In this document: piece by piece, positions 4,721 through 28,760 of the stretch
Layout: each line of letters starts with the position of its first letter
Position numbering within the stretch: position 1 is the stretch's first letter
Assembly: GCA_030167145.1 (NCBI GenBank)
Contig: CP126532.1
Location: 4,530,001 to 4,562,000, forward strand
DNA length: 32,000 nucleotides
Source of the DNA: Ktedonobacterales bacterium
GTDB taxonomy: Bacteria; Chloroflexota; Ktedonobacteria; Ktedonobacterales; JADMIN01
Direction: 5' to 3'
Program-made: the position numbers and the translations under genes
The notes under the pieces: generated by a model
Database searches by the model: none
What the model was told of the DNA's origin: nothing
Seen by the model: the letters and a program-made list of their open reading frames with translations, nothing else

Positions 4721-5230
4721 ATGTCTGGTTCGGCAGTGGAAAATCCGGAGAGCGGCGTGCGCTCTGCCTCCGGTGCGGTGGGTTCAGCGCAGAACAAAAA
4801 GGTGTTGGTGATTGACGATAATCCGACAATTGTTGAATTGATCCGGCATGCGGTGGGGCTACAGGGCAAGTATGACGTGGTGGTGGCCTATGACGGCGTG
4901 CAAGGGCTGGAGCGGTTCTATCACGAGCGGCCCGATTGCGTGATCGTAGACGTGAAGATGCCGCGCATGGACGGGTATCAGGTGGTGCGGTGCCTTCGCG
5001 GTGATAGCACTTCGGCGCATACGCCGCTCATTATTCTGAGCGCGATGTACGAGGAAGATGACCGGTTGACAGGTCTGCTTTCGGGTGTGGATGAGTATTT
5101 GCCCAAACCGTTCAAGCCCAGTGTGCTCTACGCCACACTGGAGCGCGTGATGCGGATCACGCCCGAAGAGCGCGAGCAGCGGATTCAGCAATTGGCCATT
5201 GCGGATAGCCCAAATAGTGGGGAGTCGTAA
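4721..5230 (+). CDS. single-domain response regulator (receiver only)
   Basis: Canonical CheY-like signature residues are present: KKVLVIDDNP..., VIVDVKMPRMDG (phospho-Asp), LIILSA and LPKPF (Lys). There is no output domain. Confidence 0.9.
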   Translation: MSGSAVENPESGVRSASGAVGSAQNKKVLVIDDNPTIVELIRHAVGLQGKYDVVVAYDGVQGLERFYHERPDCVIVDVKMPRMDGYQVVRCLRGDSTSAHTPLIILSAMYEEDDRLTGLLSGVDEYLPKPFKPSVLYATLERVMRITPEEREQRIQQLAIADSPNSGES

Positions 5231-5325
5231 CCTGGTTAGCTACTGCTCGTTACAGTAGACAAGGACGAGCGACTCAGAACAGATGTTCAGTGGGCCACTG
5301 GGGGTGCGGCGTGGCGGCGGAGAAG

Positions 5326-5751
5326 ATGGTTGAGGGGCGTATGCGAACTCAGCAACTGCGGGTGCTGGTCGTCGAGAGCAACGCCACAGCGCGCGAGCGG
5401 TTACATTCGGCGCTGGGCGATGGCTATTCGCTGCGCTTCGTCAGCGGGTCGAGCGAGGCGCTGACGGAGTTGCGCGATAATCCACCAGACCTCCTGGTAA
5501 GTGAAGTTGATCTGCCGGATGGCGACGGCCTGCGCCTCTGCGAACAGGTGCGCTCGCTGCCCAAGGCGGAACACTTGCCGATTATGCTGGTGACGGAGCG
5601 GGGCAGCATTCAAGATAAGGTGGCGGGCTTCCAGGCGGGCGCCGATGATTACGTGGTGAAGCCGGTAGATGTGCGCTTATTCCATGCGCGCGTGCGCCTG
5701 CTCTATCGCATCAAGGGTCTGGAATCACCAGAGCGTGACCGCGCATCGTAA
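5326..5751 (+). CDS. single-domain response regulator (receiver only), divergent acidic pocket
   Basis: LRVLVVESNA (ES where DD is usual), LLVSEVDLPDGDG, IMLVTE and VVKPV identify a receiver domain. The start is ambiguous between ATG 5326 and ATG 5341, and both have short GGAG-like motifs upstream. Confidence 0.8.
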   Translation: MVEGRMRTQQLRVLVVESNATARERLHSALGDGYSLRFVSGSSEALTELRDNPPDLLVSEVDLPDGDGLRLCEQVRSLPKAEHLPIMLVTERGSIQDKVAGFQAGADDYVVKPVDVRLFHARVRLLYRIKGLESPERDRAS

Positions 5752-6050: not shown

Positions 6051-7442
6051 ATGGAGGAGCGGACACGGAGCGAAGAAGTCTTCCACGGCAAGCTGATTCG
6101 GGTGCGCGTGGATACGCTGCCAGAACCAATTGGCGGTACACAGCGGTACGAGATCGTCGAACATCCCGATGCGGTGGCGATTGTCGCCGCTCAGCCAACG
6201 GCGGTCAATGGCGGGCCTGATAACTTTCAGGTGCTGATGGTGCGCCAGCAACGGCCAGCCGTCGGCAAAGACCTGTGGGAGATTCCCGCCGGGCTGGTGA
6301 ATCCCACTGATGGCGACCCCATGGTTACGGCTGCGCGCGAACTGCGCGAAGAGACCGGCTACGACGCCGACGTGTTGCAGATGCTGGCACGCGAGCTATC
6401 CTCACCGGGGTTTACTACCGAGGCCATCACCATCTTTCTGGCGACGGGCGTGCGCCCCGCGCCAGGGGCCATCGCCGGCCGCCCCACCGACACGACTGAG
6501 ATCGAACATGTGCAGTGGGTGCCGCTGGACGATGCGCTGCGCGCCTGCCAGAGCGGCGAGATTGTGGATGGCAAAACGCTGCTTGGCCTCGCGCTCGCCG
6601 CAAACGCACTGAAGAAATCATCCGGTTCCGCAAAGGGAGATAGTGCCGTGGACCCAACCAACGCGCCCAATGGCGCACCGATACTCGCCGATGACGATAG
6701 TACGGTCGCTGCCGCAGCCGGGGGTGGCATCAAAGCTGATACGACGCTGAAGCTCGAAACGATGCTGATGAACGAATTCAACTACGTGAGCGTCACGGCC
6801 TACCAGGCGCAGGAAGATCGCACGCGCATGTTCAATCTCTATCTGCTGCTGATTGGCGTGGTCGCGTCTGCACTTGGCGCGATCTACCAGTTCGGCCAGC
6901 AGCACGGCAATGAGACGACTTCGTTGCGCGGACTGGTGGTGTTACTTTTGGCTCTCGGTGGTGTGCTTGGCTTTATCTTTCTCGTCAACCTGGTCAGGTT
7001 CCGTCAGGCGTGGCGCCAGAGCGCGATTGCGATGAACACCATCAAGGAGTTCTATATTGAGCAGTTCAGAGCGCCGTTCCCCGACGTGGAAAAAGCCTTC
7101 GGTTGGCGTTTGAACACTATTCCCGCTGGTGAAAAGCTCGGCAACCCGACTACCGTTGTCTGCACCACCGTTGTCGTTCTGGGAAGCATCTGCCTTGCTG
7201 GCGCCACCTATGAAGCCTATGATCCGTGGCTGCAACCACTCATCGGCTCATTCGCTGGAGCATGGGAAGCCATCTTGTTCGTTTTTTTCATCGCTGTTTT
7301 CCTTCAGATGCTCTTCTTTTTCGTCGAGTTGCGTCATGGTAAAGATCGGAAGGCGAAGGCCGAAGTTTCTGCTCGATTTGGCTCAAGCGTAGAGGTATCT
7401 AGGTGGGAGAACGGGCAGCGGCTCCCTCCGAAATCCAAATAG
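6051..7442 (+). CDS. Nudix hydrolase (ADP-ribose pyrophosphatase-like) fused to a C-terminal 4-TM domain of unknown family
   Basis: The N-terminal part EEVFHGKLIRVRVDTL...EIVEHPDAVAIVA and the Nudix box GLVNPTDGDPMVTAARELREETGY (REx2EExGY intact) identify the Nudix domain. A low-complexity linker spans residues about 190-235. Four hydrophobic helices and the motif FGWRLNTIPAG follow. Confidence 0.85.
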   Translation: MEERTRSEEVFHGKLIRVRVDTLPEPIGGTQRYEIVEHPDAVAIVAAQPTAVNGGPDNFQVLMVRQQRPAVGKDLWEIPAGLVNPTDGDPMVTAARELREETGYDADVLQMLARELSSPGFTTEAITIFLATGVRPAPGAIAGRPTDTTEIEHVQWVPLDDALRACQSGEIVDGKTLLGLALAANALKKSSGSAKGDSAVDPTNAPNGAPILADDDSTVAAAAGGGIKADTTLKLETMLMNEFNYVSVTAYQAQEDRTRMFNLYLLLIGVVASALGAIYQFGQQHGNETTSLRGLVVLLLALGGVLGFIFLVNLVRFRQAWRQSAIAMNTIKEFYIEQFRAPFPDVEKAFGWRLNTIPAGEKLGNPTTVVCTTVVVLGSICLAGATYEAYDPWLQPLIGSFAGAWEAILFVFFIAVFLQMLFFFVELRHGKDRKAKAEVSARFGSSVEVSRWENGQRLPPKSK

Positions 7443-7614
7443 CGTCACTCCCGCTAATCCCAGGTGCGGGGCACAAAAAACGGCGAAGCGGGCCTATTCT
7501 TCCGGTTGATAGACAAACATGCAGTTCACGTGATCCATGCCGCATCATGGTAGCGCGGCAACGCTGATAAACTGACATACTGCGGGTACTTGACACCGAA
7601 AAGGAACGCCCACG

Positions 7615-8352
7615 ATGTCTGTAGACTCCGGAAATCCTTCCAACAATCCTCTCGTGCCCCTTGAAAGCACTGTTGCTACCGAACTTCTCGATGCTCATCA
7701 TGCCAAAGAGGGCGATCATCTCAACATTGAGGCGATGCTCGTAGAAGAATTCAAATATGCGCGTGAAACGGCGATGCAATCTAGCCAGGATCTGATGCGT
7801 ATTTTTGACCGGTATCTCGTCCTGGTTGGTGGCGCGGCGGTGACATTTGTTGGAGCGACCTACCAATTAAATCAGATCGGAGCGAAGACTGATTTTCTGC
7901 CTCTTATCGCCGCATCAATGATGACAATTCTCGGATTTTTGGGCATTGTCTTCTTTATCGTCTTGATTCGGATTCGCCAATCTACACGCGAAAGTATGAT
8001 TACCATGAGTGTGCTCAAGGAGCGCTACCTCCAGGAGTTTCCAGAGTACGCTCGATCTTTTCGTTGGCGTTTGACTACGGTTCCCGCTGGTGCGCGCGTG
8101 GGGGGTGTCGTATATCTGGTCTGCACAACCGTCGCGTTTGTTGATAGTTTGTGTTTCGGTGGTGGCGCATACCTACTGTATCAAGACAAACTCGGCGCCA
8201 CTCTTCCCACCTTCATATCCTGGCAAGCGGAGTTATTCGCTGCAATTATTTGCGTTATCGCCCTTTCACTCCAACTCGTGTATTTCACATATGCGCTTAG
8301 CCGACGGCGTGGCAGCAAGATGATCTTGAAGGCCAACCAATTGAACTGGTAA
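7615..8352 (+). CDS. 4-TM membrane protein, paralog of the C-terminal module of the preceding Nudix fusion
   Basis: It aligns by eye with residues about 235-450 of the upstream protein. Shared motifs are MLVEEFKY/MLMNEFNY, GATYQ/GAIYQ, IRIRQ/VRFRQ, FRWRLTTVPAG/FGWRLNTIPAG and LVCTTVAF/VVCTTVVV. An AAAGGAA RBS precedes the start. The sequence is visibly more A/T-rich than its surroundings. Confidence 0.8.
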   Translation: MSVDSGNPSNNPLVPLESTVATELLDAHHAKEGDHLNIEAMLVEEFKYARETAMQSSQDLMRIFDRYLVLVGGAAVTFVGATYQLNQIGAKTDFLPLIAASMMTILGFLGIVFFIVLIRIRQSTRESMITMSVLKERYLQEFPEYARSFRWRLTTVPAGARVGGVVYLVCTTVAFVDSLCFGGGAYLLYQDKLGATLPTFISWQAELFAAIICVIALSLQLVYFTYALSRRRGSKMILKANQLNW

Positions 8353-8373
8353 TGACCTGAGGCGTGGAAGGTG

Positions 8374-8547
8374 CTAGGCCATTATATCTTCCGCGCTTGC
8401 CTCTTCCGCACTCGCCTCTGCCATATTCGCGCCTTCCTCGCGCACGCGCGCCAGGATGCCTGTGCGGTCGCGCAGCGGCGCGCCGGAGCCACCGCGCCGC
8501 CACAGGGTCAATTCGGCGGCGATGGCCAGCGCGATCTCGTCGGGGGT
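8374..8547 (-). pseudogene. detached duplicate of the 3' end (last about 57 codons) of the xdhC-family gene
   Basis: In the xdhC reading frame it would read TPDEIALAIAAELTLWRRGGSGAPLRDRTGILARVREEGANMAEASAEEASAEDIMA*. It has no start codon or 5' part, and its upstream end abuts the vapC stop codon. Confidence 0.75.
8387..8547. repeat. direct repeat, copy A (161 bp, of which the 132-bp core 8416..8547 is identical to 9437..9568)
   Basis: Base-by-base comparison shows the 132-bp core is identical. The distal 20-29 bp differ by one substitution and a 9-bp indel (gcactcgcc). The plus-frame track translations 8371.. and 9371.. share CHIRAFLAHARQDACAVAQRRAGATAPPQGQFGGDGQRDLVGG. Confidence 0.95.
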
Positions 8548-8550
8548 GTG

Positions 8551-9021
8551 CTAGGGTGCATTTTGCGCAGGCGCCCAATGGACACGCGACTCGTGTTTCC
8601 CCACGCTATTGATAAATCGCTCATCCCCAGTCCAAAGCTCAATATCTTCCAGTTCGGCGAGTGCGAGATACATCATGTCATAGGCGCGCTGGGTTTTATG
8701 CGTCTTTGCTAGTTCCCATGCGCGCAGGTGCAGATCATCGCGATCAATCCGCGTAATTCTCAAATCATTGAAAGACGAAAACGCACGTTCTCCTTCTTCA
8801 GGCGTAAGCTTGCCTGTAGCAACACGCAAGCGAATGACCGAGGTGACTTCGGCATACAAAAGGGCAGGACCTACAACGTGTACACCCGTACTGGCCCAAC
8901 TCGTCCATAGGCTTTCGGTATTGGGATCGCGCTCGTAGGGCAAGAGCAGATGCAACACAAGCGAGGCGTCCACGCAGAGTCGTATTTGGTTTGGCGCATT
9001 GTTCTGGAGTGCGGTAGGCAT
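8551..9021 (-). CDS. vapC: PIN-domain toxin VapC
   Basis: The 156-aa product has PIN acidic residues in context: CVDASLV, LYAEVTSV, AYDMMYLALA and LWTGDERF. Its ATG overlaps the upstream antitoxin stop (ATGA at 9021). Confidence 0.85.
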   Translation of the reverse strand: MPTALQNNAPNQIRLCVDASLVLHLLLPYERDPNTESLWTSWASTGVHVVGPALLYAEVTSVIRLRVATGKLTPEEGERAFSSFNDLRITRIDRDDLHLRAWELAKTHKTQRAYDMMYLALAELEDIELWTGDERFINSVGKHESRVHWAPAQNAP

Positions 9022-9308
9022 CAGGCGTGATTTCCCTGATGTGCAGACTGGTCGAGTTCGTTGAGCCGCCCGTCACGAACCATGTCCAGGTCGTCCTCCA
9101 CCGAGCCAAAAGATAGGCCATCGGTGAGCAGCCGAGCGCGAATGCGTTCCCGCGCTTCTATCGTTCGGCGAACCGTCTCGACACTCAGTCCCTCCGTATG
9201 TGTCTTGCGCAAGACAGTGGGGAGCGCATCCAGAAGCTCAGTGCGCTCGTCATCAGTAAGCTGCGCGATTTCTTCTAGCATGCGATGTACACGTATACTT
9301 GCCATCAT
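9021..9308 (-). CDS. vapB: VapB-type antitoxin (addiction-module component)
   Basis: The product is 95 aa starting MMASIRVHRMLEEIAQLTDDERTELLDALPTVL. GGGAG lies upstream. It overlaps vapC by 4 bp. The longer 167-aa track ORF extends into the repeat and is Arg-rich nonsense. Confidence 0.7.
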   Translation of the reverse strand: MMASIRVHRMLEEIAQLTDDERTELLDALPTVLRKTHTEGLSVETVRRTIEARERIRARLLTDGLSFGSVEDDLDMVRDGRLNELDQSAHQGNHA

Positions 9309-9403
9309 CAGTCTCCCTTGCCTGGTAGGTAATACCACCATTCGCTTGTGCCATACGGGTCTATCAGGCAGTGTCTCCGCACATGCTACCACAGATACCG
9401 CGC

Positions 9404-10267
9404 TCAGATAGCCGCCTCTTCCGCGCTCGCCTCTTCCTCTGCCATATTCGCGCCTTCCTCGCGCACGCGCGCCAGGATGCCTGTGCGGTCGCGCAGCGGC
9501 GCGCCGGAGCCACCGCGCCGCCACAGGGTCAATTCGGCGGCGATGGCCAGCGCGATCTCGTCGGGGGTTTCCGCGCCGAGGTCCAGCCCAATCGGCGCGG
9601 CCACTCGCGCCAGGTCGTCCGGGGCAACGCCTTCGCGCAGCAGTGTGCGGAAGATGACGCGCACTTTGCTCTGGCTGCCGATCATGCCGATATAGCCCGC
9701 AGTGGTTTCAAGCGCGGCGCGCAGCGCATCTTTATCAGTGCGGTGGCCACGCGTGACGATGACGATGGCCGATACGCTATCGGGGCGCTGCTCGCGCAGC
9801 AATTCGGCAATCTCGCCGGTCTTGGTGATGACGCTGCCAGGGGTGTGAGCCGCGCGCACAACCTCGGTGCGGTCGTCCAGCAAGGTGACACGCCAGCCGA
9901 GCGGAACCGCGAGCCGGGCCAAAGCCTGCGCGACATAGCCCGACCCAGCGACCAGCAAGCGTGGCTCAGGGCGTAGCGGCTCGGCGAAGATTTCCAGCGT
10001 CGCGCCGCAGCTTCCCACGCTCTCGCCGGTGTCGGGATCGAGGTGATAGGTGAGCAGTTCCGGCTCGCCCGCCGCCAGGATTCGCAATCCGTCTTCACGG
10101 GCGCGCGCATCTGTGGATGCGCCCTGGAGCGTGCCGGTGAGGCTGCCATTGCCGCGCACCAGCAGGCGTGTGCCTGGCGCACAAGGCGCGGCGCCATGGA
10201 CGCGGACGACGGTTAGCAGCGCGACTGGCTCGCCGTGGGCGAGGGCGGCGGCAATCTCAGAGAACAT
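9404..10267 (-). CDS. XdhC/CoxI-family accessory protein (molybdo-enzyme maturation factor family)
   Basis: MFSEIAAALAHGEPVALLTVVRVHGAAPCAPGTRLLV is the N-terminal XdhC domain. LLVAGSGYVAQALARLAVPLGWRVTLLDDR is the Rossmann domain. An AGGAGG RBS precedes the start. Confidence 0.85.
   Translation of the reverse strand: MFSEIAAALAHGEPVALLTVVRVHGAAPCAPGTRLLVRGNGSLTGTLQGASTDARAREDGLRILAAGEPELLTYHLDPDTGESVGSCGATLEIFAEPLRPEPRLLVAGSGYVAQALARLAVPLGWRVTLLDDRTEVVRAAHTPGSVITKTGEIAELLREQRPDSVSAIVIVTRGHRTDKDALRAALETTAGYIGMIGSQSKVRVIFRTLLREGVAPDDLARVAAPIGLDLGAETPDEIALAIAAELTLWRRGGSGAPLRDRTGILARVREEGANMAEEEASAEEAAI
9417..9568. repeat. direct repeat, copy B (inside the intact xdhC-family gene 3' end)
   Basis: See copy A. 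The two copies are offset by 1021 bp. Confidence 0.95.
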
Positions 10268-10521: not shown

Positions 10522-11148
10522 ATGCGGGAAGCGCTCAACTATCAAGCACGGAGGCGTGCGGTCCGGCTGGCGACGCTGGTGATCTGCGCGGCGGCGCTGG
10601 CGGTGACGTTCGCGGGCTGCAATCTCTTCGGCGGGTCTTCCAGCAGCTCGAACGACACCTCATCGGCGCTCACGAAAATACCGTGGTGCGATAAGCCATT
10701 CATTCAATTTGTAGATAGCACCTCTGCCTCGCAGACGCCGATCACCAATTGGGATGCGGTTAAAGGGGAGCTGGGCTTCACGCTGTACCTGCCGCCCTCG
10801 CTGCCCAAGGGCACGTGCCTGGTGCTGGCGGGTGGCAGCATCCACGATGCGATCTACGGCGCGCACGTGAGCATCACCTGGGATGTGCCCAACACCGGGC
10901 CGATCAGCCTTTCGGAGGCGCCGGTGCGCGGCCAGGGTAGTGTGGCGCTGCAATGCACGGCAAGCGCGCAGAACACGCAGACCAACGTTTGCCTGGGCAC
11001 ACACGACGGCACGAGCGTCACCATTGCCTCGCGTCAATCCACTGCTGACCTGCAAACGCTCTTCAAGTCGCTCCAGCCAAATCTGGATTGGGTACCGAGC
11101 GACACGAATCAACTGCTGGCGACGCCGTCCGCCACGGCGGGCAGCTAG
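10522..11148 (+). CDS. putative secreted lipoprotein (DUF4367-like)
   Basis: The signal peptide has a lipobox: LVICAAALAVTFAGC. It is followed by a Ser-rich linker. Confidence 0.65.
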   Translation: MREALNYQARRRAVRLATLVICAAALAVTFAGCNLFGGSSSSSNDTSSALTKIPWCDKPFIQFVDSTSASQTPITNWDAVKGELGFTLYLPPSLPKGTCLVLAGGSIHDAIYGAHVSITWDVPNTGPISLSEAPVRGQGSVALQCTASAQNTQTNVCLGTHDGTSVTIASRQSTADLQTLFKSLQPNLDWVPSDTNQLLATPSATAGS

Positions 11149-11201
11149 CCCGCCCCTCGCATTACGCCTCGCCGAGCCAGGATTACCCGCAACAGATTGT
11201 C

Positions 11202-11849
11202 CTAGATCGTCAGCTTGCCGAAGACGATCAGCGCGACCACCACCAGTACGATGCCGCCGACGACGAACGGCTCGACGCGACTGCCGGAGTGGAAGCGCCA
11301 GTTGCGGTTGGGCGGGAAGCCGAAGCGCGTATGGTTGGGCCAGAGCCACGGCACGCCGCCATACGTGAGGCTGTCGGCAAGGATGTGCAGGAAATAGCCG
11401 AGCAGGAAGGCGATGAACACGACGCCCACACCCGACGCGAGCACCACGCCCGGAGCCACGCCGACGCCGAGCTTTTCGGCTACTGGCACATAACCCAGCC
11501 GGTAGAACACGAGGCCGAGCGCGTATTGCGCGGCCCAGACGATTGCGCCGACCATCGCCAGCCCAAGCAGACTGTGAAACAGAGTGCGATGTCCGGCGAG
11601 CTTCTGGATGCCCTTGCTGACGAATCCCGCGCGCTGGCCGATGGTGCTGCGCGCGTTATCTATGTCGGGCGTGAGCGCGCCCAGGGCTACCGCGCCATAG
11701 AAGACGGCCTTCAGCAGCACCACATCCGTAAACTGACGCGGGTCGCTGGTAAGGCTACCGCCAAGCAGCGATGCGCCGGTAATATGAAAGAGGCTGTCGG
11801 CGACAACGGCGCCCGCCAGCCCAAAGACTACGTGAGATGGAGCCTCCAC
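11202..11849 (-). CDS. membrane-bound metal-dependent hydrolase, YdjM/DUF457 family
   Basis: The protein is multi-TM with His-containing motifs (SHVVFG, HRTLFHSLLG, FLHILADSLTYGGVPWLWP). It uses a GTG start with AAGGGGG upstream. Confidence 0.75.
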   Translation of the reverse strand: MEAPSHVVFGLAGAVVADSLFHITGASLLGGSLTSDPRQFTDVVLLKAVFYGAVALGALTPDIDNARSTIGQRAGFVSKGIQKLAGHRTLFHSLLGLAMVGAIVWAAQYALGLVFYRLGYVPVAEKLGVGVAPGVVLASGVGVVFIAFLLGYFLHILADSLTYGGVPWLWPNHTRFGFPPNRNWRFHSGSRVEPFVVGGIVLVVVALIVFGKLTI

Positions 11850-11879
11850 CCCTACCCCCTTTATCCGAACGATTTGGCT

Positions 11880-12206
11880 CTATTCAGGAACAGCGACGTA
11901 GATATCGTCGCCCTCTACCCGCACGGCGTAGGATGGCACGTCGTCGCGCGCCGGGCCACGCAACACTTTGCCGGTACGCGCATCGAAGCGCGCCAGATGC
12001 ACCGGACAGGTGAGCACGCAGCCCGCCAGTTCGCCATCCGAGAGCGCGCCGCCGATATGCGGACAATCGTCGCTGACGGCGTAGATCGCGCCATCCACGT
12101 TGGCCAGGCACACGAGCTGACCCGCAACCTCGACACGCGCCAGCGCGCCGGGTGGGATGTCGCGCACCCGCGCTACTTTGACGAACGCGCCAACGATTTC
12201 GCCCAT
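11880..12206 (-). CDS. Rieske [2Fe-2S] ferredoxin-type protein
   Basis: The Rieske motifs CPHIGG (CxH) and CPVHLARF (CxxH) are present. The start is at M13 of the ORF. The gene ends 30 nt upstream of the ydjM-like start, so the two are probably co-transcribed. Confidence 0.85.
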   Translation of the reverse strand: MGEIVGAFVKVARVRDIPPGALARVEVAGQLVCLANVDGAIYAVSDDCPHIGGALSDGELAGCVLTCPVHLARFDARTGKVLRGPARDDVPSYAVRVEGDDIYVAVPE

Positions 12207-12477
12207 ATGCCTCTCTGCCCTCCTCACCGGCTGTGCTCGCATTCTACGCTACCCAGCGCGTGCGCTCAAGCGGCGGGAAGGAAGGGATAGTACCTTGGGC
12301 GCATGGGGATCGGACTGAGTATGTCTGCCCTTTAGCATAGCAATTTCGCGGCGACATCCGCGGGAGGTAAAATAAGGCGACCGTCGCGCGTCACGAGAAT
12401 AGCGTACAGTGATGATGGCTAGCCTCCAGGTAGCGGCATATGTTGCCTGCGGGGTAAGCTCGAAGGAGCGTAGTTCC

Positions 12478-17261: not shown

Positions 17262-19649
17262 ATGAACTGTCCTAATTGTCAGGCCCCGCTCGTCCCTGGC
17301 GCCACATTCTGCGTGCAATGCGGTACGCGCCTCGCGCCCGATGCGCCAGAGGCGGCGCCACCCACTCCCACCCCAGAGGTGGCGCCCACATACCCAGCTG
17401 CGCCTCCTCCGCCTCCGATGTCGGCGCCACCACCTCCGATGTCCGTGCCATTGTCCTATCAGCCGCAAACGTCTCCACCTGCACAACCAGCATACACTAC
17501 TCCGCCGTCGCAGCCCTTCTACGGTCAGCCACCCGCGCCACCTGCACAACCAGCGTACACTACTCCACCATCGCAGCCGCTCTACGGCCAGCCGCCATCG
17601 CAGCCGCTCTACGGCCAGCCGCCATCGCAGCCGCCCTATGGCCAACCTGCGTACAGCGCGCCGCCATCGCAGCCGCTCTACACAACACCACCTTCACAAC
17701 CAGTGTATGCGCCTCCGCCGTCGCAGCCGCTCTACAGCCAGCCAGCCGCGCCCTCACAACCTCTATTCAGCACGGTGTTCGGACCAGACGCCGACCCCAT
17801 GGGCGCGCCAGCGGCCCCCTCCACGCCCTTGCAAGAGTACATGACGCGGAATCTGCCGCGCCAGTATGCCCTGAACAAGTGGTTTACCGCGCTACTCGGC
17901 GCTATCGCGGCGGTTATCAGCGGACTCATCCTCACCGCTCTGGCGCAATCACTGTGGGGCAATGCCATAAAGGGGCTGCTCGGGCTGGCTCCTACACCGG
18001 CGAGCATCAGTTCAACCCTGGATAGCTATGGGCAGGCGCTGCTTACCCCTGACCTGCTGAAGCTCTTCGCGATCGAGCATCACGTCCCATTGGTAATCAG
18101 CGCGAGCGTATCCGCAGGCGGCGGCCCGGTGAACGCTTCACTCGGCGGCGACGTAACCCTCAATCTGCCGCTGACTGGCCTGATCATCATACCCGCGCTG
18201 GCGCTGACCCTCGGTGGCTATGTTTCTGCCACCAGCGGATATACCCATCAGGCGCGCTATGCCATTGCGCGCGGCGCGCTCATTGCGCCCTTCTATGCTG
18301 TGGCGACGGCGATCCTCGCCGCAATGGGATCGAGCAGCATCAGCGGTGGCCTGCTGAGTGAATCAGGCTCGGTGACGATTGCGCCAGCAGTATTTCCCGC
18401 TATCATCTATGGATTGCTCTGGGGCGCCATCTTTGGCGCATTGGGTGGCTGGATTCACCATTCAGGCAGGACGTGGCTTTCATCGGCGGTTCAATCGCTT
18501 CAATCGGTCCAAACGCTCCAGCGCAAGCGCGCCGCGGGCGCCCTCGCAGGCGCGGTGGCGGCATATCTCTGTGGCGTGCTGCTGTTCATTGCGGCTGGTA
18601 TTGGCGGCATCGCCTTTCTGCTCATCCACACCGCCGCCACGACCACAGTCAATGTCACACAGTTGCAGTCGGGCACGCAGGGCAATCCGGCGCTGATCGC
18701 ATTCCTCGCCATTACGATGGCGCCGGTGCTGGCGGTGTGGGCGCTGGCGGTCGCCTCTGGCGCGCCGCTACAGACCTTCACCTCGATCCCCGGAGGCTCG
18801 GGCTCTTCCGGCACGACTTCGATTGGCCTCATTGGCACGCACCAGGCCATACCGGGTCTCCTCTGGCTCATCGTGCTGATTCCGGCCATCGCCTACATCG
18901 CTGGTGGGCGCATCGCGGCGCGGGTCGCGCAGGCTGATCGCCCGGATAGCGCATTCATCGCTGGCGCATTGATGGCGGTCCCATTGAGCATCATCACCGC
19001 CGCTGCCGCCTGGCTCACCTCGGTCAGCTTCGACATCAGCTTCCTCGGCCAGAGCGGCAGCGTGGGCTTCTCGCCGTCCATCGGCGGAACCTTCCTCGCG
19101 GTGCTCATTTTTGGGGCAGTCGTGGGCGGCATCGGCGGGGTCAGCTACCTGCGCGCGCCGGGTCTCGGAGAACTGCCGCGCATCGTACTGATACCCTTCC
19201 GGCCCATCGGCGCGGCACTCAACCCGCTGCTCGACCGGCTCACCGGCGCGCCCGCGGGCCAGCCACGCAGCGCGGCGCGGCGGTGGGTCTATGATGCCGT
19301 GCTGGCGGCAGTGATCCTGGGTGTCGCTACCATCGTGCTCAACATCATCAACACGCCGTTAGCGCCTAGCGCGCCCTTCTCGCTGCTCAGCGGGCTGGAC
19401 CAGTGGGTCGGCGCGTTGCTCGGCGCACTGCCGATCTGCTACTTGATTGGCGCGCTCATAGTGCTATTCACTGGCTCCGCACAGTCTCCGGCGACTGTGG
19501 CAAGTGCGTCTGGGGGCATACCAGTGGCCGTGCCCGTGACCGCGCCCGGCAGCATCGCCTTCACCTACCCGCCAGCGCCTTTGGGGCAGATGCCCGGATA
19601 TCCACCGCAAGGCGTGGGCGGCGACACTCCACAGCTACCAACATCCTGA
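17262..19649 (+). CDS. zinc-ribbon protein with P/Q/Y-rich repeat region and about 11 TM helices (unknown family)
   Basis: The zinc ribbon is CPNCQAPLVPGATFCVQCG. About 150 aa of PSQPLYGQP-type repeats follow. The long Gly/Ala-rich polytopic region matches no family motif I recognise. A CAGGAGG RBS precedes the start. Confidence 0.8.
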   Translation: MNCPNCQAPLVPGATFCVQCGTRLAPDAPEAAPPTPTPEVAPTYPAAPPPPPMSAPPPPMSVPLSYQPQTSPPAQPAYTTPPSQPFYGQPPAPPAQPAYTTPPSQPLYGQPPSQPLYGQPPSQPPYGQPAYSAPPSQPLYTTPPSQPVYAPPPSQPLYSQPAAPSQPLFSTVFGPDADPMGAPAAPSTPLQEYMTRNLPRQYALNKWFTALLGAIAAVISGLILTALAQSLWGNAIKGLLGLAPTPASISSTLDSYGQALLTPDLLKLFAIEHHVPLVISASVSAGGGPVNASLGGDVTLNLPLTGLIIIPALALTLGGYVSATSGYTHQARYAIARGALIAPFYAVATAILAAMGSSSISGGLLSESGSVTIAPAVFPAIIYGLLWGAIFGALGGWIHHSGRTWLSSAVQSLQSVQTLQRKRAAGALAGAVAAYLCGVLLFIAAGIGGIAFLLIHTAATTTVNVTQLQSGTQGNPALIAFLAITMAPVLAVWALAVASGAPLQTFTSIPGGSGSSGTTSIGLIGTHQAIPGLLWLIVLIPAIAYIAGGRIAARVAQADRPDSAFIAGALMAVPLSIITAAAAWLTSVSFDISFLGQSGSVGFSPSIGGTFLAVLIFGAVVGGIGGVSYLRAPGLGELPRIVLIPFRPIGAALNPLLDRLTGAPAGQPRSAARRWVYDAVLAAVILGVATIVLNIINTPLAPSAPFSLLSGLDQWVGALLGALPICYLIGALIVLFTGSAQSPATVASASGGIPVAVPVTAPGSIAFTYPPAPLGQMPGYPPQGVGGDTPQLPTS
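17565..17645 (+). repeat. 27-bp coding tandem repeat x3 (PPSQPLYGQ), the core of a longer degenerate repeat tract (about 17455..17775)
   Basis: cc(a/g)ccatcgcagccgctctacggccag is repeated head to tail at 17565, 17592 and 17619. The third copy is imperfect. Confidence 0.9.
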
Positions 19650-25186: not shown

Positions 25187-26689
25187 CTACGCGGGCATCA
25201 GCGCCGACGCAGTGCGCGCGGCATGGACGAAGGCACGCATCTTCTCTGGGTCTTTGGCGTGGTGCGTTTCGATGCCGCTGCTCACATCCACGCCACGCGG
25301 CTGGGCAGCAGCCAGCGCGCCAGCCACATTCTCTGGCGCAAGGCCACCGGAGAGGATCACTGGCCAGCGTTCCGCCGCCCGGCGCGCTAGCTCCCAGTCG
25401 CCGGTCTCGCCGGTGCCGCCATATGCCCCGCTAGAAGAAGGGGTATCGAGCAGCAGAGCCGCCCCAGCCATCGCATAGGCGTCCAGCCGTTCCAGGTCGG
25501 CTTCCGCACGCAAGCGTATGGCTTTGATGATCTGGAAGCGTGTGCGTCGCTGCACCTCGGCACAATATTCGGGCGTCTCATCGCCGCTAAGTTGCACAGC
25601 CAGCAGCCCAGCGCGATAAGCAGTGGTGAGCAGTGATTCCAGTGGTTCGTTTACGAAGACGCCTACCGGCCAGACTATCCTCTCCATATCCATCGCTTCG
25701 TTGCGAATGGTGTCGCTGATTTCGCGCGCCTGTACGGCCGTGACACGCCGGTGCGGCGGAGCCTGGGGCGCGAAGACCAGCCCCATCGCGTTCGCGCCCA
25801 GTTCAGCGGCCAGCGCGCCCTGTTCTGGGGTCGCCAGTCCGCAGAGCTTAATGAACGGCCATTCAGCGCCACGGAAGAGGGCAGTCATCGCGCCGCTCGG
25901 AGCCGTCGCCAGTTCGCGCGCCATGGCCTGGGGGGCAGCCGCGCGCATCAGAGCCTCACCGACGAGAATGGCGTCCGCGCCCCACGCCCGCGCCCGCGCC
26001 GCGCCAAGCGCATCAGCGATGCCGCTCTCGGCGACGAATGTGCGGTCCGCTGGCACGAGTGGCCGCAGACGGCGCACGATGGCGGTATCTACAGCGAAGG
26101 TGCGCAGGTCGCGGCTGTTCACGCCGATGACCCGCGCGTCCGCCGCCAGCGCCCGCTGGACCTCTTCAGCGTTATGCGCCTCCACCAGCGCCTCCATGCC
26201 AAGGGAGCGAGTGAGCGCGAGCAGTTCGCGTAATGCCGCATCGTCGAGCAGCGCACAGATGAGCAGCAGCGCATCTGCCCCAGCGGCGCGCGACTCGTAG
26301 ACTTGATACGGATCGAGGATGAAGTCTTTGCGCAGCACGGGCACGTCCACCGCCGCGCGCACGGCTCTGAGATGTTCGAGCGCGCCAAGGAAGAAGTGCG
26401 GTTCCGTCAGCACGCTGATCGCCGCCGCGCCGCCCGCCGCATACGCCCTCGCCTGCGCCACCGGGTCGAACGTCTCGACGAGCAACCCCTTCGAGGGCGA
26501 TGCGCGCTTGACCTCGGCGATCAGCGCCGCCGCACGTTTGGGTGTCGGATGGATTGCTTCGCGAAACGGGCGTGGCGCGGGCGCGGCTGCGGCACGGGCA
26601 CGCAACTCGTCCAGTGGCACGCGCGCCTGGCGTTCGGCAAGGTCGCGCTGGGTCGCCGCGACGATGCGTTCGAGAAATGTCTCAGCCAT
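25187..26689 (-). CDS. trpCF: bifunctional indole-3-glycerol-phosphate synthase / phosphoribosylanthranilate isomerase
   Basis: The N-terminal half is TrpC (LIAEVKRASPSKG, LRKDFILDPYQVYESR, IGVNSRDL). The C-terminal half is TrpF (IKLCGLATPEQ...GLVFAPQ, LLDT...GGTGETGDW, ILSGGLAPENV). The ATG is at 26689, with GGTGGGG upstream. Confidence 0.9.
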   Translation of the reverse strand: MAETFLERIVAATQRDLAERQARVPLDELRARAAAAPAPRPFREAIHPTPKRAAALIAEVKRASPSKGLLVETFDPVAQARAYAAGGAAAISVLTEPHFFLGALEHLRAVRAAVDVPVLRKDFILDPYQVYESRAAGADALLLICALLDDAALRELLALTRSLGMEALVEAHNAEEVQRALAADARVIGVNSRDLRTFAVDTAIVRRLRPLVPADRTFVAESGIADALGAARARAWGADAILVGEALMRAAAPQAMARELATAPSGAMTALFRGAEWPFIKLCGLATPEQGALAAELGANAMGLVFAPQAPPHRRVTAVQAREISDTIRNEAMDMERIVWPVGVFVNEPLESLLTTAYRAGLLAVQLSGDETPEYCAEVQRRTRFQIIKAIRLRAEADLERLDAYAMAGAALLLDTPSSSGAYGGTGETGDWELARRAAERWPVILSGGLAPENVAGALAAAQPRGVDVSSGIETHHAKDPEKMRAFVHAARTASALMPA

Positions 26690-26698
26690 GATCCCCAC

Positions 26699-27688
26699 CT
26701 AATCCTCGCCCGCTTCACTCTCGCCCGTTGAGGAGAGATATCCATGCAAGAAGCGCATATTCCACCTATATGTCTCAGAACCATCCCACGCCGCATAAGC
26801 CGTCGGAACCGGCTGCCGAATCAGCTCGTCCGCCGATGTGCCAGCCCGCATCGCATCTCGTACCGCCGCGAGGGAATCCCTGATATACTGGCGCACCCGC
26901 GCGCAATCTTCCAATGTGCCCACCGGCCCATGCCCCGGCACGAGCGTCCGCAGGTCCAGCGTTTCGACGTGATCCAGAATCCGTATCCATTCTTCGGGAT
27001 CGCCGTCGCCCATCCACGGGTGCGACTTCACGAACAGCAGGTCGCCCATCACGGCTACATGGTCATCAGGCAGATACAAGAAGGCGTCGCTATGGGTATG
27101 CCCGCCGCCGATAGTGAGAAACTCCACGCGCCGCTGTGCTCCCTGAAGCACGATACTGGTGTCGAAGGTCAGCGTGGGCAGGGGCAGGCGCAGCGCGGGC
27201 AGCGCGGCATCGAACAGTCGCCAGGTCGCCAGATCGGCGGCGAGGGCGCGTTTGCGCGCCTCATCCTGTTCGCCCGCTAACTCCTCTTCTTGCTTGCGCA
27301 GTTGCTCAGCGCCTTTCTCTGGGTGCGCCTGGCCGCGTTCGATGTCATGCAGTGTGCGCTCAGCCATCAATTCGCGTGTGCGGCGGGTGGCGACGATCAC
27401 CGCGTCCGCGAAGACCTGATTGCCCTGCACGTGGTCGCCGTGAAAGTGGGTATTGAGTACATAGCGCACCAGACGCCCAGTAAGCTGCTCCGCCGCCGCG
27501 CGCAGGTCGTCCGCTGCCTGGGGGGTGAGCATCGTATCGAGGACCAGAGTGCTATCGCCCAGGTCTACGATAGCGGCATTGCCCATTGCGCCAGCGCCCT
27601 CGATGGCGATGGCTGCGTAAACGCCCTCGGCCACGCGCTCCAGGCGAAAATGCCGCAACACGGGCATATCCTTCGGCTCTGCATACAT
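26699..27688 (-). CDS. MBL-fold metallo-hydrolase embedded in the trp operon
   Basis: The HxHxDH motif is LNTHFHGDHVQGN, and downstream His/Asp ligands are present (GGGHTHSD, PGHGPV). The gene starts 31 nt after the trpD stop and ends 9 nt before the trpCF start. The start at M18 was computed from the ORF frame. Confidence 0.8.
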   Translation of the reverse strand: MYAEPKDMPVLRHFRLERVAEGVYAAIAIEGAGAMGNAAIVDLGDSTLVLDTMLTPQAADDLRAAAEQLTGRLVRYVLNTHFHGDHVQGNQVFADAVIVATRRTRELMAERTLHDIERGQAHPEKGAEQLRKQEEELAGEQDEARKRALAADLATWRLFDAALPALRLPLPTLTFDTSIVLQGAQRRVEFLTIGGGHTHSDAFLYLPDDHVAVMGDLLFVKSHPWMGDGDPEEWIRILDHVETLDLRTLVPGHGPVGTLEDCARVRQYIRDSLAAVRDAMRAGTSADELIRQPVPTAYAAWDGSETYRWNMRFLHGYLSSTGESEAGED

Positions 27689-27719
27689 CTCGCACACCAT
27701 CCCTTTCTTGCTCTCGCAC

Positions 27720-28760
27720 TTATGCCGTAACCGGCGCAAGGGCGCGCGTCATGGCGATCAATGCGTCCAGTGTGGTGATGCACTTGCCCGCGCTGAGCAC
27801 ATCCCGCGCCTGACGCACACCGTCGCGGATCGTGTCCGCGCGGCCCGTCACATAGAGCGCCGCCCCCGCGTTGAGCGCCACCATCTCGCCGATAGCGCCA
27901 TTCTGTTCGCCCTTGAGCACGCTGCGCATCACGGCGGCATTGTGCTGGGCGTCTCCGCCGCGCACCTGCTCGCGCTCGCGCAGTGGCAGGCCCATCTCGT
28001 CCGGCGTCACAATATATTCACGAATGTCGCCCGCATCGCCGCGCACCTCGCACACATGCGTGGGCGCGCTCAGCGATAGCTCATCCACGCCGTCATCGCC
28101 ATGCACGATCAGCGCGCGGGCGCAGCCCAGTCGCAGCAGCGCCTCGCCCATCAGCGGCAGCAGCGCGCCATCGGCGACGCCCAGCACCTGATAGCGCGCG
28201 CCCGCCGGATTGGTGAGCGGACCTAGGATATTGAAGACAGTGCGAATACCGATCTCGCGGCGTGTCGGGCCGACGTGGCGCATCGCGGGGTGGTAGGCGG
28301 GCGCGAACATGAAGCCGAAGCCGACCTGCTCGACACACGCCGCTACCTGCTCTGGGCCAAGCTCCAGTTTGACGCCCAAGGATTCCAGCACGTCGGCGCT
28401 GCCGCAATGGCTGGTGGCGGCGCGGTTGCCGTGCTTCGCCACTGGCTGGCCGAGCGCGGCGACGACCACTCCCGCCGCCGTGGAGACGTTGAAGGTGCCG
28501 GAGGCGTCGCCGCCGGTGCCGCAGGTATCTACCGCCTGGATATGCGAAGGAAGAGGCACGCGCAGCGCTTTCTCGCGCATCACCCGTGCGAGCCCCGTCA
28601 CCTCGTCCACCGTCTCGCCCTTCAGGCGCAGCGCGGTCAGAAATGCGCCAAGCTGGGATGGCGTGGCCGTGCCACTCATCATTTCGTCCATTGCAGCAGC
28701 GGCTTCGCTCTCGCTTAAAGAGCCGCCCGCCACTAGTTGCGTAATCGCTTCGCGGATCAT
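27720..28760 (-). CDS. trpD: anthranilate phosphoribosyltransferase
   Basis: AFLTALRLKGETVDEVTG, DTCGTGGDASGTFNVST and NRAATSHCGSADVLE are present. A GGAGGA RBS precedes the start. Confidence 0.95.
   Translation of the reverse strand: MIREAITQLVAGGSLSESEAAAAMDEMMSGTATPSQLGAFLTALRLKGETVDEVTGLARVMREKALRVPLPSHIQAVDTCGTGGDASGTFNVSTAAGVVVAALGQPVAKHGNRAATSHCGSADVLESLGVKLELGPEQVAACVEQVGFGFMFAPAYHPAMRHVGPTRREIGIRTVFNILGPLTNPAGARYQVLGVADGALLPLMGEALLRLGCARALIVHGDDGVDELSLSAPTHVCEVRGDAGDIREYIVTPDEMGLPLREREQVRGGDAQHNAAVMRSVLKGEQNGAIGEMVALNAGAALYVTGRADTIRDGVRQARDVLSAGKCITTLDALIAMTRALAPVTA

Follow-up and report, generated by a model that had tools for sequence, protein, structure and literature searches.

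Nudix ADP-ribose pyrophosphatases (ADPRases) are ordinary enzymes of NAD salvage and detoxification, and those of the NudF, Rv1700 and Ndx4 types are obligate dimers. The known bacterial representatives are soluble proteins of ~170-210 aa, whereas the protein studied here adds a disordered linker and a four-transmembrane (4-TM) module to such an enzyme. Its gene lies in a 32,000-nucleotide stretch of a soil Ktedonobacterales (Chloroflexota) genome (contig CP126532.1, positions 4,530,001 to 4,562,000; the whole stretch is hereafter called the window). An open reading frame (ORF) at 6051-7442 on the + strand encodes the 463-aa fusion, and a second + strand ORF at 7615-8352, spaced from the former by 172 bp, encodes a 245-aa free-standing paralog of the module. 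A preliminary description of this DNA had given the two ORFs with these coordinates, strand and gap, and the ORF list bears it out in full. The fusion protein carries the NCBI name ADP-ribose pyrophosphatase in a Ktedonobacterales metagenome-assembled genome (MAG), and its full-length orthologs fall into more than 120 clusters (90% identity) that are 42-59% identical to the window protein.

One of the commonest outputs of bacterial immunity is the depletion of NAD+ by SIR2 and TIR enzymes. The fate of the ADP-ribose (ADPR) released in immunity is only starting to be understood, one example being the phage NARP1 pathways, which rebuild NAD+ from ADPR (10.1101/2024.02.11.579819). Among described conflict systems, the SIR2-STAND (nSTAND1/Avs-like) systems (Kaur et al. 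2020, PMC7159879) stand close to the family analysed here, as module relatives with or without a Nudix gene adjoin SIR2_2 and nSTAND1-TPR/WD40 genes in no fewer than 12 loci, which represent two classes of Chloroflexota. Unlike these systems, the 32-kb window has neither a SIR2 nor a STAND gene, and we did not find the module or the Nudix protein described as components of SIR2-STAND systems in the literature. The SLATT proteins (Burroughs et al. 2015; Pfam SLATT_1-6, DUF4231) share with the module a helix-2TM-helix layout and a conservation that is centred on the cytoplasmic boundary, and both are genomically linked to NAD+/ADPR-type conflict genes (PMC7159879, PMC9503650). The module differs from SLATT in having two more TM helices, and its partners are Nudix, SIR2 and Macro proteins instead of SMODS, SLOG and TIR.

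A more distant likeness, in analogy only, is offered by TRPM2, which likewise has an ADPRase-type Nudix domain joined covalently to a membrane protein at its cytoplasmic side; in invertebrates this NUDT9-homology domain of TRPM2 is a catalytically active ADPRase (PMC6461439, PMC8145809). TRPM2 is a eukaryotic, tetrameric, ADPR-activated cation channel with 6 TM helices and without homology to the membrane part of the fusion, and Pfam and PDB searches with the module returned no ion-transport or ion-channel family. Csx28, the octameric membrane pore of type VI-B CRISPR systems, resembles the module as a small oligomeric membrane protein and an accessory immune effector. It was rejected as a relative because it consists of 1 TM helix and a HEPN-like four-helix bundle and was not retrieved by the PDB sequence and fold searches. 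The TM effectors of CBASS, Thoeris and Pycsar were also set aside, as no PADLOC model matched the module and the window contains no cyclase or TIR gene.

Nudix head, linker and membrane module

The enzyme head occupies aa 1-190 of the fusion (6051-6620, +), N-terminal beta domain included. Pfam NUDIX (PF00293) matches aa 60-164 with 63.7 bits, against a gathering cut-off of 21.1, and the nearest solved relatives are the ADPRases 8wv3, 9jax and 1mk1 (M. tuberculosis Rv1700), with E=2e-26 to 6e-26 over aa 3-186. The homology to solved ADPRases spans the full length of the head, including the N-terminal dimerization domain, and known bacterial enzymes (NudF/YffH-AdpP type; Rv1700, 1mk1; 8wv3; T. 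thermophilus Ndx4, 1v8i) align end to end with aa 1-190, with the N-terminal beta domain and Nudix box intact. The Nudix box, G81-Y104 (GLVNPTDGDPMVTAARELREETGY; 6291-6362, +), reads G81...R96-E97-L98-R99-E100-E101-T102-G103-Y104 and fits the consensus GX5EX7REUXEEXGU with its catalytic glutamates. G81, R96, E97, E100 and E101 are invariant in 87 full-length orthologs, and the invariance of the REx2EE residues indicates that catalysis is under selection. The curated NCBIfam cut-offs were missed by the fusion (TIGR00052, 38.6 bits vs 79.55; NudE, 40.4 vs 169). The head is thus predicted to be a catalytically competent ADPRase, in agreement with the complete ADPRase-type Nudix domain with retained REx2EE glutamates noted in the preliminary description.

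AlphaFold2 (AF2) models were built with 87-88 homologs. The model of the fusion has a mean predicted local distance difference test score (pLDDT) of 87 and a predicted template modelling score (pTM) of 0.64, with the Nudix domain (aa 1-190) and the module (aa 231 to ~440) both well folded at pLDDT >90. Between them, aa 194-229 (6630-6737, +) form a linker that is disordered in the model (pLDDT <50) and has the lowest conservation of the whole protein (1.8 bits); the linker described earlier is thus present and disordered, at ~36 instead of ~45 residues. A motif of the form D-P-T-N-(M/A)-P-(F), located at 6651-6700, is semi-conserved within this disorder and recurs at the N-termini of Nudix-less modules (e.g. 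L089, 7914-7960; L numbers denote the related loci of our survey). It may be a docking motif.

The membrane module proper comprises aa 231-463 (6741-7442, +). Hydropathy gives four TM segments (260-278, 294-312, 367-385 and 407-425), and the AF2 helices (231-284, 290-338, 366-398, 404-426 and 429-453) agree with them and with the amphipathic helix plus four hydrophobic helices of the preliminary description. The first helix begins with a cytoplasmic amphipathic half and continues as TM1, followed by a short outer loop. TM2 runs on into a basic cytoplasmic helix (RxRQ...MNxIKEFY) and a cytoplasmic loop with the motif FxWR...P, and the module ends with TM3, TM4 and a basic C-terminal helix. Basic residues thus come after TM2 and after TM4. 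With four TM helices, both termini of the module lie on the same, cytoplasmic side, so that a Nudix domain fused at either end is always cytoplasmic. As modelled, the flexible linker of ~36 residues would hold the ADPRase at the cytoplasmic face of the membrane.

Conservation within the module is strongly uneven. Columns that are at least 90% identical make up 41% of the helix preceding TM1 (231-259) and 31% of the helix following TM2 (313-338), compared with 31% of the Nudix domain, and TM3, TM4 and the tail are the least conserved parts of the module (0-3% of columns). The conserved core has two cytoplasmic helices and the FxWR loop clasped around a 2-TM hairpin, an arrangement suggestive of a cytoplasmic surface for binding or regulation. 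As conservation peaks in the cytoplasmic helices and Nudix-less versions persist, the module appears to be more than an anchor. An internal duplication of a 2-TM unit was considered and rejected (hhalign probability 0.4%).

The module belongs to a previously unnamed family. No named family of Pfam, NCBIfam, PADLOC or PHROGs matched the two window proteins or 73 family members above threshold, the fold search gave no PDB or BFVD match, and a sequence search of solved structures returned nothing below E=0.02. Transporter-family similarity was likewise absent in the Pfam, NCBIfam and PDB sequence and fold searches. The earlier statement that the module was not recognizable as a named family therefore holds, and a match to a well-characterized housekeeping family, which would have spoken against the interpretation given then, did not turn up. 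Among the 73 members there are sub-threshold matches to 8xMP, DUF4231, Tetraspanin and single SLATT, 2TM and CARF_TM models. The most frequent, PF24838 8xMP (octameric membrane protein family), covers helix-TM1-TM2 in 25 of the 73 members at E<0.01 (best 8.9e-6), all under the gathering cut-off of 30 bits, so that membership was not assigned. On the window fusion 8xMP scores 10.5 bits (E=0.56) and on the free paralog it has no match; some fusion orthologs carry precomputed 8xMP matches, and the paper defining PF24838 was not traced in the literature. DUF4231 reaches E=0.28 on the free paralog and E<0.01 on two of the 73 members. Single members match PADLOC RTasSLATT models at 0.005-0.008, and RTasSLATT, 2TM-effector and CARF_TM together range over E=0.003-0.008. 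A SLATT-like layout is present, as the AF2 helices 38-87 and 95-141 of the free paralog form a 2-TM hairpin with cytoplasmic helices. As two more TM helices come next, this amounts to no more than a resemblance. The module was not assigned to SLATT because no SLATT-clan profile matched significantly and no association with SMODS, SLOG or TIR was seen: these three are absent among the recurrent neighbours of 166 loci, with one DUF4062 gene in L006/L007.

Module family and its genomic partners

An exhaustive HMMER search with a profile of the two window copies retrieved at least 500 clusters (50% identity) at E≤1e-3, 363 of them at E≤1e-10. The family is found mostly in Chloroflexota and extends to KSB1 and other phyla. 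In the related loci, ORFs are our own longest-ORF calls and domains were assigned with self-built HMMs. Three forms of the family can be told apart. The Ktedonobacteria-type form consists of Nudix → module fusions, as in the window. Among 80 metagenomic loci of this type, 10 have a fusion with an immediately following free module, 16 a fusion only (with at least 900 bp visible downstream), 10 split Nudix → module genes, and at least 19 Nudix-less modules alone. A further stand-alone Nudix ORF, a candidate from the self-built Nudix HMM, lies directly upstream of the fusion in L127 (4182-4928), L135 (6495-7268) and L159 (1022-1579). Another stoichiometry variant is seen in L155 (3095-4857), where two free modules stand in tandem with a 4-bp overlap and without a Nudix gene. 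In L001, a 1.6-Mb contig, an IS605-family TnpB gene (OrfB_IS605/Cas12f-like; 6775-7938) directly precedes the fusion ortholog.

The long form, of ~240-270 aa with an additional N-terminal TM helix, occurs in Anaerolineae, Caldilineaceae, KSB1, Zhuqueibacterota, one Thermoanaerobaculia MAG and one gammaproteobacterial MAG. Where the downstream region is visible (33 loci), 23 loci have a stand-alone Nudix gene on the same strand directly downstream and a further three (L022, L024 and L028) have module → Nudix fusions. Adjacent same-strand pairs, with gaps of about -3 to +140 bp, are found in Anaerolineae, KSB1, Zhuqueibacterota and Thermoanaerobaculia. The partner of the long form is an ADPRase of the E. 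coli NudF/NudK sub-branch (9dua, 4e-29; 1g0s, 6e-26), whereas the fused Nudix domain of the window is of an Rv1700-like sub-branch and matches the NudF/NudK sub-branch only at ~1e-8. The fusion in L028 (9779-11215; Gammaproteobacteria MAG chromosome OZ245880.1) has the reverse of the window order and lies outside Chloroflexota, which suggests horizontal spread of the unit. The short form, of ~190 aa, belongs to Anaerolineales and Chloroflexia. Linkage to Nudix genes is seen in 26 of 33 long-form loci vs none of 43 short-form loci (Fisher p=3e-14).

Module and ADPRases are thus linked repeatedly, in both fusion orders and with two ADPRase sub-branches. A survey of whether homologs are fused or adjacent to Nudix genes elsewhere had been proposed with the preliminary description, and it turned up fusions in both orders as well as adjacent pairs in several phyla. 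A family-wide functional coupling of the module to ADP-ribose hydrolysis, as predicted from these arrangements, is well supported. Mobility or a phage origin of the module was considered and rejected, as no relatives were found in IMG/VR viral contigs, INPHARED phages or PLSDB plasmids.

A subset of relatives is embedded among conflict genes. Seven long-form loci lack Nudix, and in four of them (L009, L015, L016 and L017) its place directly downstream is taken by SIR2_2 and an nSTAND NTPase-WD40/TPR gene. Both kinds of partner are combined in L012, whose genes, in the order module-Nudix-SIR2-nSTAND, overlap or are 5-9 bp apart. The gene order is caspase-SIR2-nSTAND/TPR-Macro/CHAT-module in L004 and Macro-AAA-CHAT, NACHT-HEAT, DUF4062, module, Nudix in L006 and L007, and a caspase gene is added in L014 and L020. 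In seven Ktedonobacteria-type loci (L132, L133, L134, L142, L143, L149 and L164) the Nudix and module region is convergent with an nSTAND1-TPR gene, mostly at a distance of 17-22 bp (177 bp in L164). SIR2_2 follows nSTAND in L132, L142, L143 and L164, and the contigs of L133, L134 and L149 end within nSTAND. Taken together, adjacency to SIR2 and STAND genes is absent in the window and present in L004, L009, L012, L014, L015, L016, L017, L132, L133, L134, L142, L143, L149 and L164. Genes of the conflict type neighbour the module in 8 of 35 long-form genome loci vs 1 of 45 short-form loci (p=0.009), and no cyclase or TIR gene is linked to the module in 166 loci. The linked partners (Nudix-ADPRase, SIR2 and Macro) make, bind or break ADP-ribose, not cyclic oligonucleotides. 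Recruitment of the module into NAD+/ADPR conflict systems, as read from gene neighbourhoods, is moderately supported. The conflict-effector logic proposed in the preliminary description finds support in a subset of relatives, which, in answer to the check for defence islands proposed there, lie in operon-like arrays with SIR2, nSTAND/NACHT, Macro-CHAT and caspase genes; the part of it that invoked known effector types does not, as no CBASS, Thoeris, Pycsar or SLATT model matched.

Within the Ktedonobacteria-type lineage the fusion has a stable neighbour. The gene xdhC (XdhC_CoxI + XdhC_C by Pfam; 9404-10267, -), convergent with the fusion in the window, neighbours the fusion also in L001, L127, L135, L154, L159 and L160. 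It follows the fusion alone in L001 and L127, and the pair of fusion and free module in L159, L154 and L160. This shared synteny marks the fusion of the window as vertically inherited and the free module as an optional companion gene. Tandems of a fusion and a free module are found in 10 other loci, among which L159 matches the window order of fusion, free module and xdhC.

The free paralog of the window (7615-8352, +) is preceded by a 172-bp spacer (7443-7614), which has an AGGA-type ribosome-binding site ~10 nt before the ATG. It carries a linker remnant at its N-terminus and aligns to residues 201-438 of the fusion with 35% identity (BLASTP, E=5e-40; ~240 alignable residues), as expected from the earlier reading of this gene as a paralog of the module alone. 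The five motifs listed in that reading as shared (MLxxEFxY, GAxYQ, (V/I)RxRQ, F(G/R)WRL(N/T)T(I/V)PAG and CTTV) were all recovered in both copies. The G+C content at third codon positions (GC3) is 0.52 in the free paralog, 0.66 in the fusion module and 0.74-0.81 in the flanking genes. Among 15 billion proteins the paralog has no ortholog above ~41% identity, the closest sequences being fusions of other genomes (35-41%). In a crude tree, built by simple neighbour joining, it is an isolated long branch, and the tandem free modules from elsewhere fall into two or more separate clades. A recent tandem duplication was rejected as its origin on account of the 35% identity, the GC3 difference, the closest relatives elsewhere and the isolated branch; the window copy is probably an old or horizontally exchanged Nudix-less copy. 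As Nudix-less free modules keep the D-P-T-N-x-P linker motif at their N-terminus, they derive from fusions that lost the enzyme head.

Proposed function and competing explanations

We tentatively favour, as a reading that may well be right, a membrane device for ADP-ribose handling in which the module is a dedicated partner of ADPRases and is regulated by ADPR or an NAD+ breakdown product. The module would sense ADPR or a closely related product of NAD+ breakdown, or be regulated by it, and the tethered or co-encoded ADPRase would destroy that ligand, thereby setting the threshold and duration of the response. Since ADPRases of this type are obligate dimers, the fusion should bring at least two modules together. 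The Nudix-less 245-aa paralog probably enters the fusion assemblies in the membrane and would lower the enzyme-to-module ratio; such co-assembly is plausible. The pair would be connected to conflict systems of the SIR2-nSTAND, Macro-CHAT and caspase kinds in some lineages of Anaerolineae and of the Ktedonobacteria type, and in the window genome it would act alone, in a housekeeping neighbourhood beside xdhC. Where SIR2 NADases are present, the ADPRase would also make NAD+ depletion irreversible, and in the SIR2-linked loci it could remove the ADPR used by phage NARP1 pathways to rebuild NAD+. Ligand sensing, oligomerization, co-assembly and any membrane effect are steps that we infer, and a defence role for the window copy and pore activity of the module are unproven.

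Several observations weigh against this reading. The module has no homolog of known function, and the case for ligand sensing is made solely by genomic association and the conservation pattern. The short form shows conserved synteny with core genes, either ffh, rpsP, rimM, dprA and manC or an M29 peptidase gene and a PNPOx-like gene, which means that the module fold is not intrinsically part of conflict systems; the proteins of this branch may have a housekeeping function in the membrane. Examples of its gene orders among L036-L086 are ffh-rpsP-rimM...dprA-manC-module-DUF498 (L046, 6615-10263) and M29 aminopeptidase-module-PNPOx-like-DUF4342 (L074, 8601-10561). SIR2 and nSTAND genes are abundant in Chloroflexota, the convergent arrangement in Ktedonobacteria-type loci is adjacency and not an operon, and many metagenomic loci come from related samples, so that the counts are not fully independent. 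The 32-kb window has no SIR2, STAND, Macro, caspase, TIR or cyclase gene and is housekeeping in content apart from a small toxin-antitoxin insertion. The fusion has the look of a vertically inherited lineage gene, for which an ordinary metabolic role fits equally well, and the free paralog, with its deviant GC3 and no close ortholog, could be drifting or horizontally acquired.

The plainest competing explanation, which we regard as somewhat doubtful, is a housekeeping membrane-anchored ADPRase, in which the module only localizes, and perhaps oligomerizes, an enzyme that detoxifies or recycles ADPR, the free paralog is a spare scaffold, and neither signalling nor immunity is involved. The housekeeping context of the window, the wide occurrence of the fusion and its synteny with xdhC within the lineage, the core-gene synteny of short-form relatives and the absence of the family from phages, plasmids and viral contigs all agree with it, and ADPRases are in themselves ordinary salvage and detoxification enzymes. 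An anchor is however not expected to have cytoplasmic helices as conserved as the enzyme, nor does it account for the Nudix-less modules that persist beside SIR2-nSTAND genes (L009, L015, L016 and L017) or for two ADPRase sub-branches having joined the same module in both fusion orders. A transport-coupled enzyme would make the module a small oligomeric transporter or channel for ADPR, nicotinamide mononucleotide (NMN), nicotinamide riboside or ribose-5-phosphate, with the Nudix enzyme processing the substrate at its mouth. NadR-PnuC pairs are a precedent for such a design, the enzyme is tethered on the cytoplasmic side, and enzyme and membrane genes are tightly translationally coupled in many loci (gaps of -3 to +20 bp). 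Yet poorly conserved TM3, TM4 and outer loops, with the conserved residues placed in the cytoplasm, are atypical of a substrate pathway, and with the lack of similarity to any transporter family in our searches we give this explanation very little chance.

The preliminary description itself had envisaged a SLATT-like abortive-infection pore that responds to a second messenger from a remote sensor, with the Nudix domain as receptor or off-switch and the free paralog as co-subunit or antagonist. The core does have the helix-TM-TM-helix layout of 2-TM effectors, weak matches to 8xMP (25/73, best 9e-6), DUF4231, RTasSLATT, 2TM-effector and CARF_TM occur sporadically, and relatives have SIR2, nSTAND, NACHT, Macro-CHAT and caspase genes around them. 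This model is nevertheless decidedly unlikely: no HMM reaches a family threshold and no PDB or BFVD fold matches, no cyclase, SMODS, SLOG or TIR gene is linked in the 166 loci, the window has no sensor, and phages and plasmids give no sign of mobility. A constitutively active ADPRase on a suicide pore that is apparently core across a bacterial class would also be unusual for defence genes. The absence of an adjacent cyclase, TIR or sensor gene had been remarked on from the start, and no cyclase or TIR gene was detected anywhere in the window. For the free paralog alone, it has to be considered that the gene is a non-functional or hitch-hiking remnant, horizontally acquired or decaying, with no role beside the fusion. 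Its GC3 (0.52 vs 0.66 for the fusion module and 0.74-0.81 for the flanks), its isolated long branch without an ortholog above ~41% identity, and its absence from the syntenic loci L001 and L127 are in keeping with this. We consider such a remnant improbable, given an intact ORF that keeps every family-invariant residue, a confident AF2 fold (pLDDT 85, pTM 0.77), and a fusion → free layout that is repeated in 10 loci besides the window, the syntenic L159, L154 and L160 among them.

The membrane device for ADP-ribose handling, as favoured here, would by analogy share the design logic of the TRPM2 channel-enzymes. In a bolder version, which we think unlikely in its entirety, the module would be a new class of ADPR-responsive membrane effector with its own ADPRase timer and a bacterial counterpart of TRPM2. 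ADPR released by SIR2 or under NAD+ stress would bind the cytoplasmic collar and open or remodel an oligomeric assembly, the Nudix enzyme would set the threshold and deny ADPR to NARP1-type phage pathways, Nudix-less paralogs would tune the gain, and the whole would have become fixed in Ktedonobacteria as a stand-alone stress or immune module.

Whichever role applies, the family is easily recognized and is coupled to ADPRases in several phyla and in every possible gene arrangement. The module and the ADPRase form a Rosetta-stone pair, with natural variants that have or lack the enzyme head. Their coupling, together with the repeated SIR2-STAND, Macro-CHAT and caspase neighbours, makes the module a concrete candidate for the membrane arm, or for a regulator, of immunity or stress signalling that is based on ADPR, and it may add a new membrane component to ADP-ribose signalling or defence. 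Even if it is only an anchor, a new family annotation is gained for several hundred hypothetical proteins of Chloroflexota, KSB1 and other phyla.

Window context and the PIN cassette

Between the free paralog and xdhC lies a small cassette bracketed by a 133-bp perfect direct repeat. The left copy (8415-8547) is a duplicated fragment of the xdhC 3' end and the right copy (9436-9568) is located inside the xdhC 3' end itself; the repeat extends imperfectly to ~165 bp with a 9-bp indel and encloses 8548-9435. The cassette encodes a PIN-domain (VapC-like) toxin (8551-9021, -; Pfam PIN 41.3 bits vs a cut-off of 23.6; GC3 0.54) and a putative antitoxin, whose ORF has a maximal extent of 9021-9524 (-), overlaps the PIN ORF by 1 nt and has no Pfam match. 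As the 5' part of this ORF overlaps xdhC and the repeat, its true start is probably further downstream. The arrangement, with a small ORF preceding the PIN toxin, is of the VapBC type, and the PIN toxin together with the direct repeat confirms the toxin-antitoxin cassette with an integration scar that had been noted before. L159 has the same gene order as the window but lacks the PIN cassette, which is a later insertion with no connection to the Nudix/module unit. Low GC3 sets the free paralog (0.52) and the PIN gene (0.54) apart as a patch at 7615-9021 between genes of 0.66-0.81, which suggests that one or both were horizontally acquired.

The rest of the window is housekeeping, with genes for a short-chain dehydrogenase/reductase (SDR), a ThiF/MoeB-like protein, two CheY-type receivers, XdhC, a peptide-binding protein, AlkA, QueG and a GT4 glycosyltransferase, and the trp operon. 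A promoter and terminator scan of the window gave nothing above the shuffled background, and tRNA and Rfam scans gave no matches. The two receivers are tandem single-domain response regulators (4721-5230 and 5290-5751, +) directly upstream of the fusion, with no kinase nearby; they and the ThiF gene were rejected as parts of the unit because they do not recur in related loci. Two + strand ORFs, at 11088-12290 (400 aa) and 10522-11148 (208 aa), have no Pfam match, and the product of the latter is lipoprotein-like. For the 795-aa product of the ORF at 17262-19649 (+), an N-terminal zinc ribbon is the sole assignment. The trp operon includes a metallo-beta-lactamase-fold gene (26699-27739, -), placed between trpD (27720-28760) and trpC/F (25187-26698).

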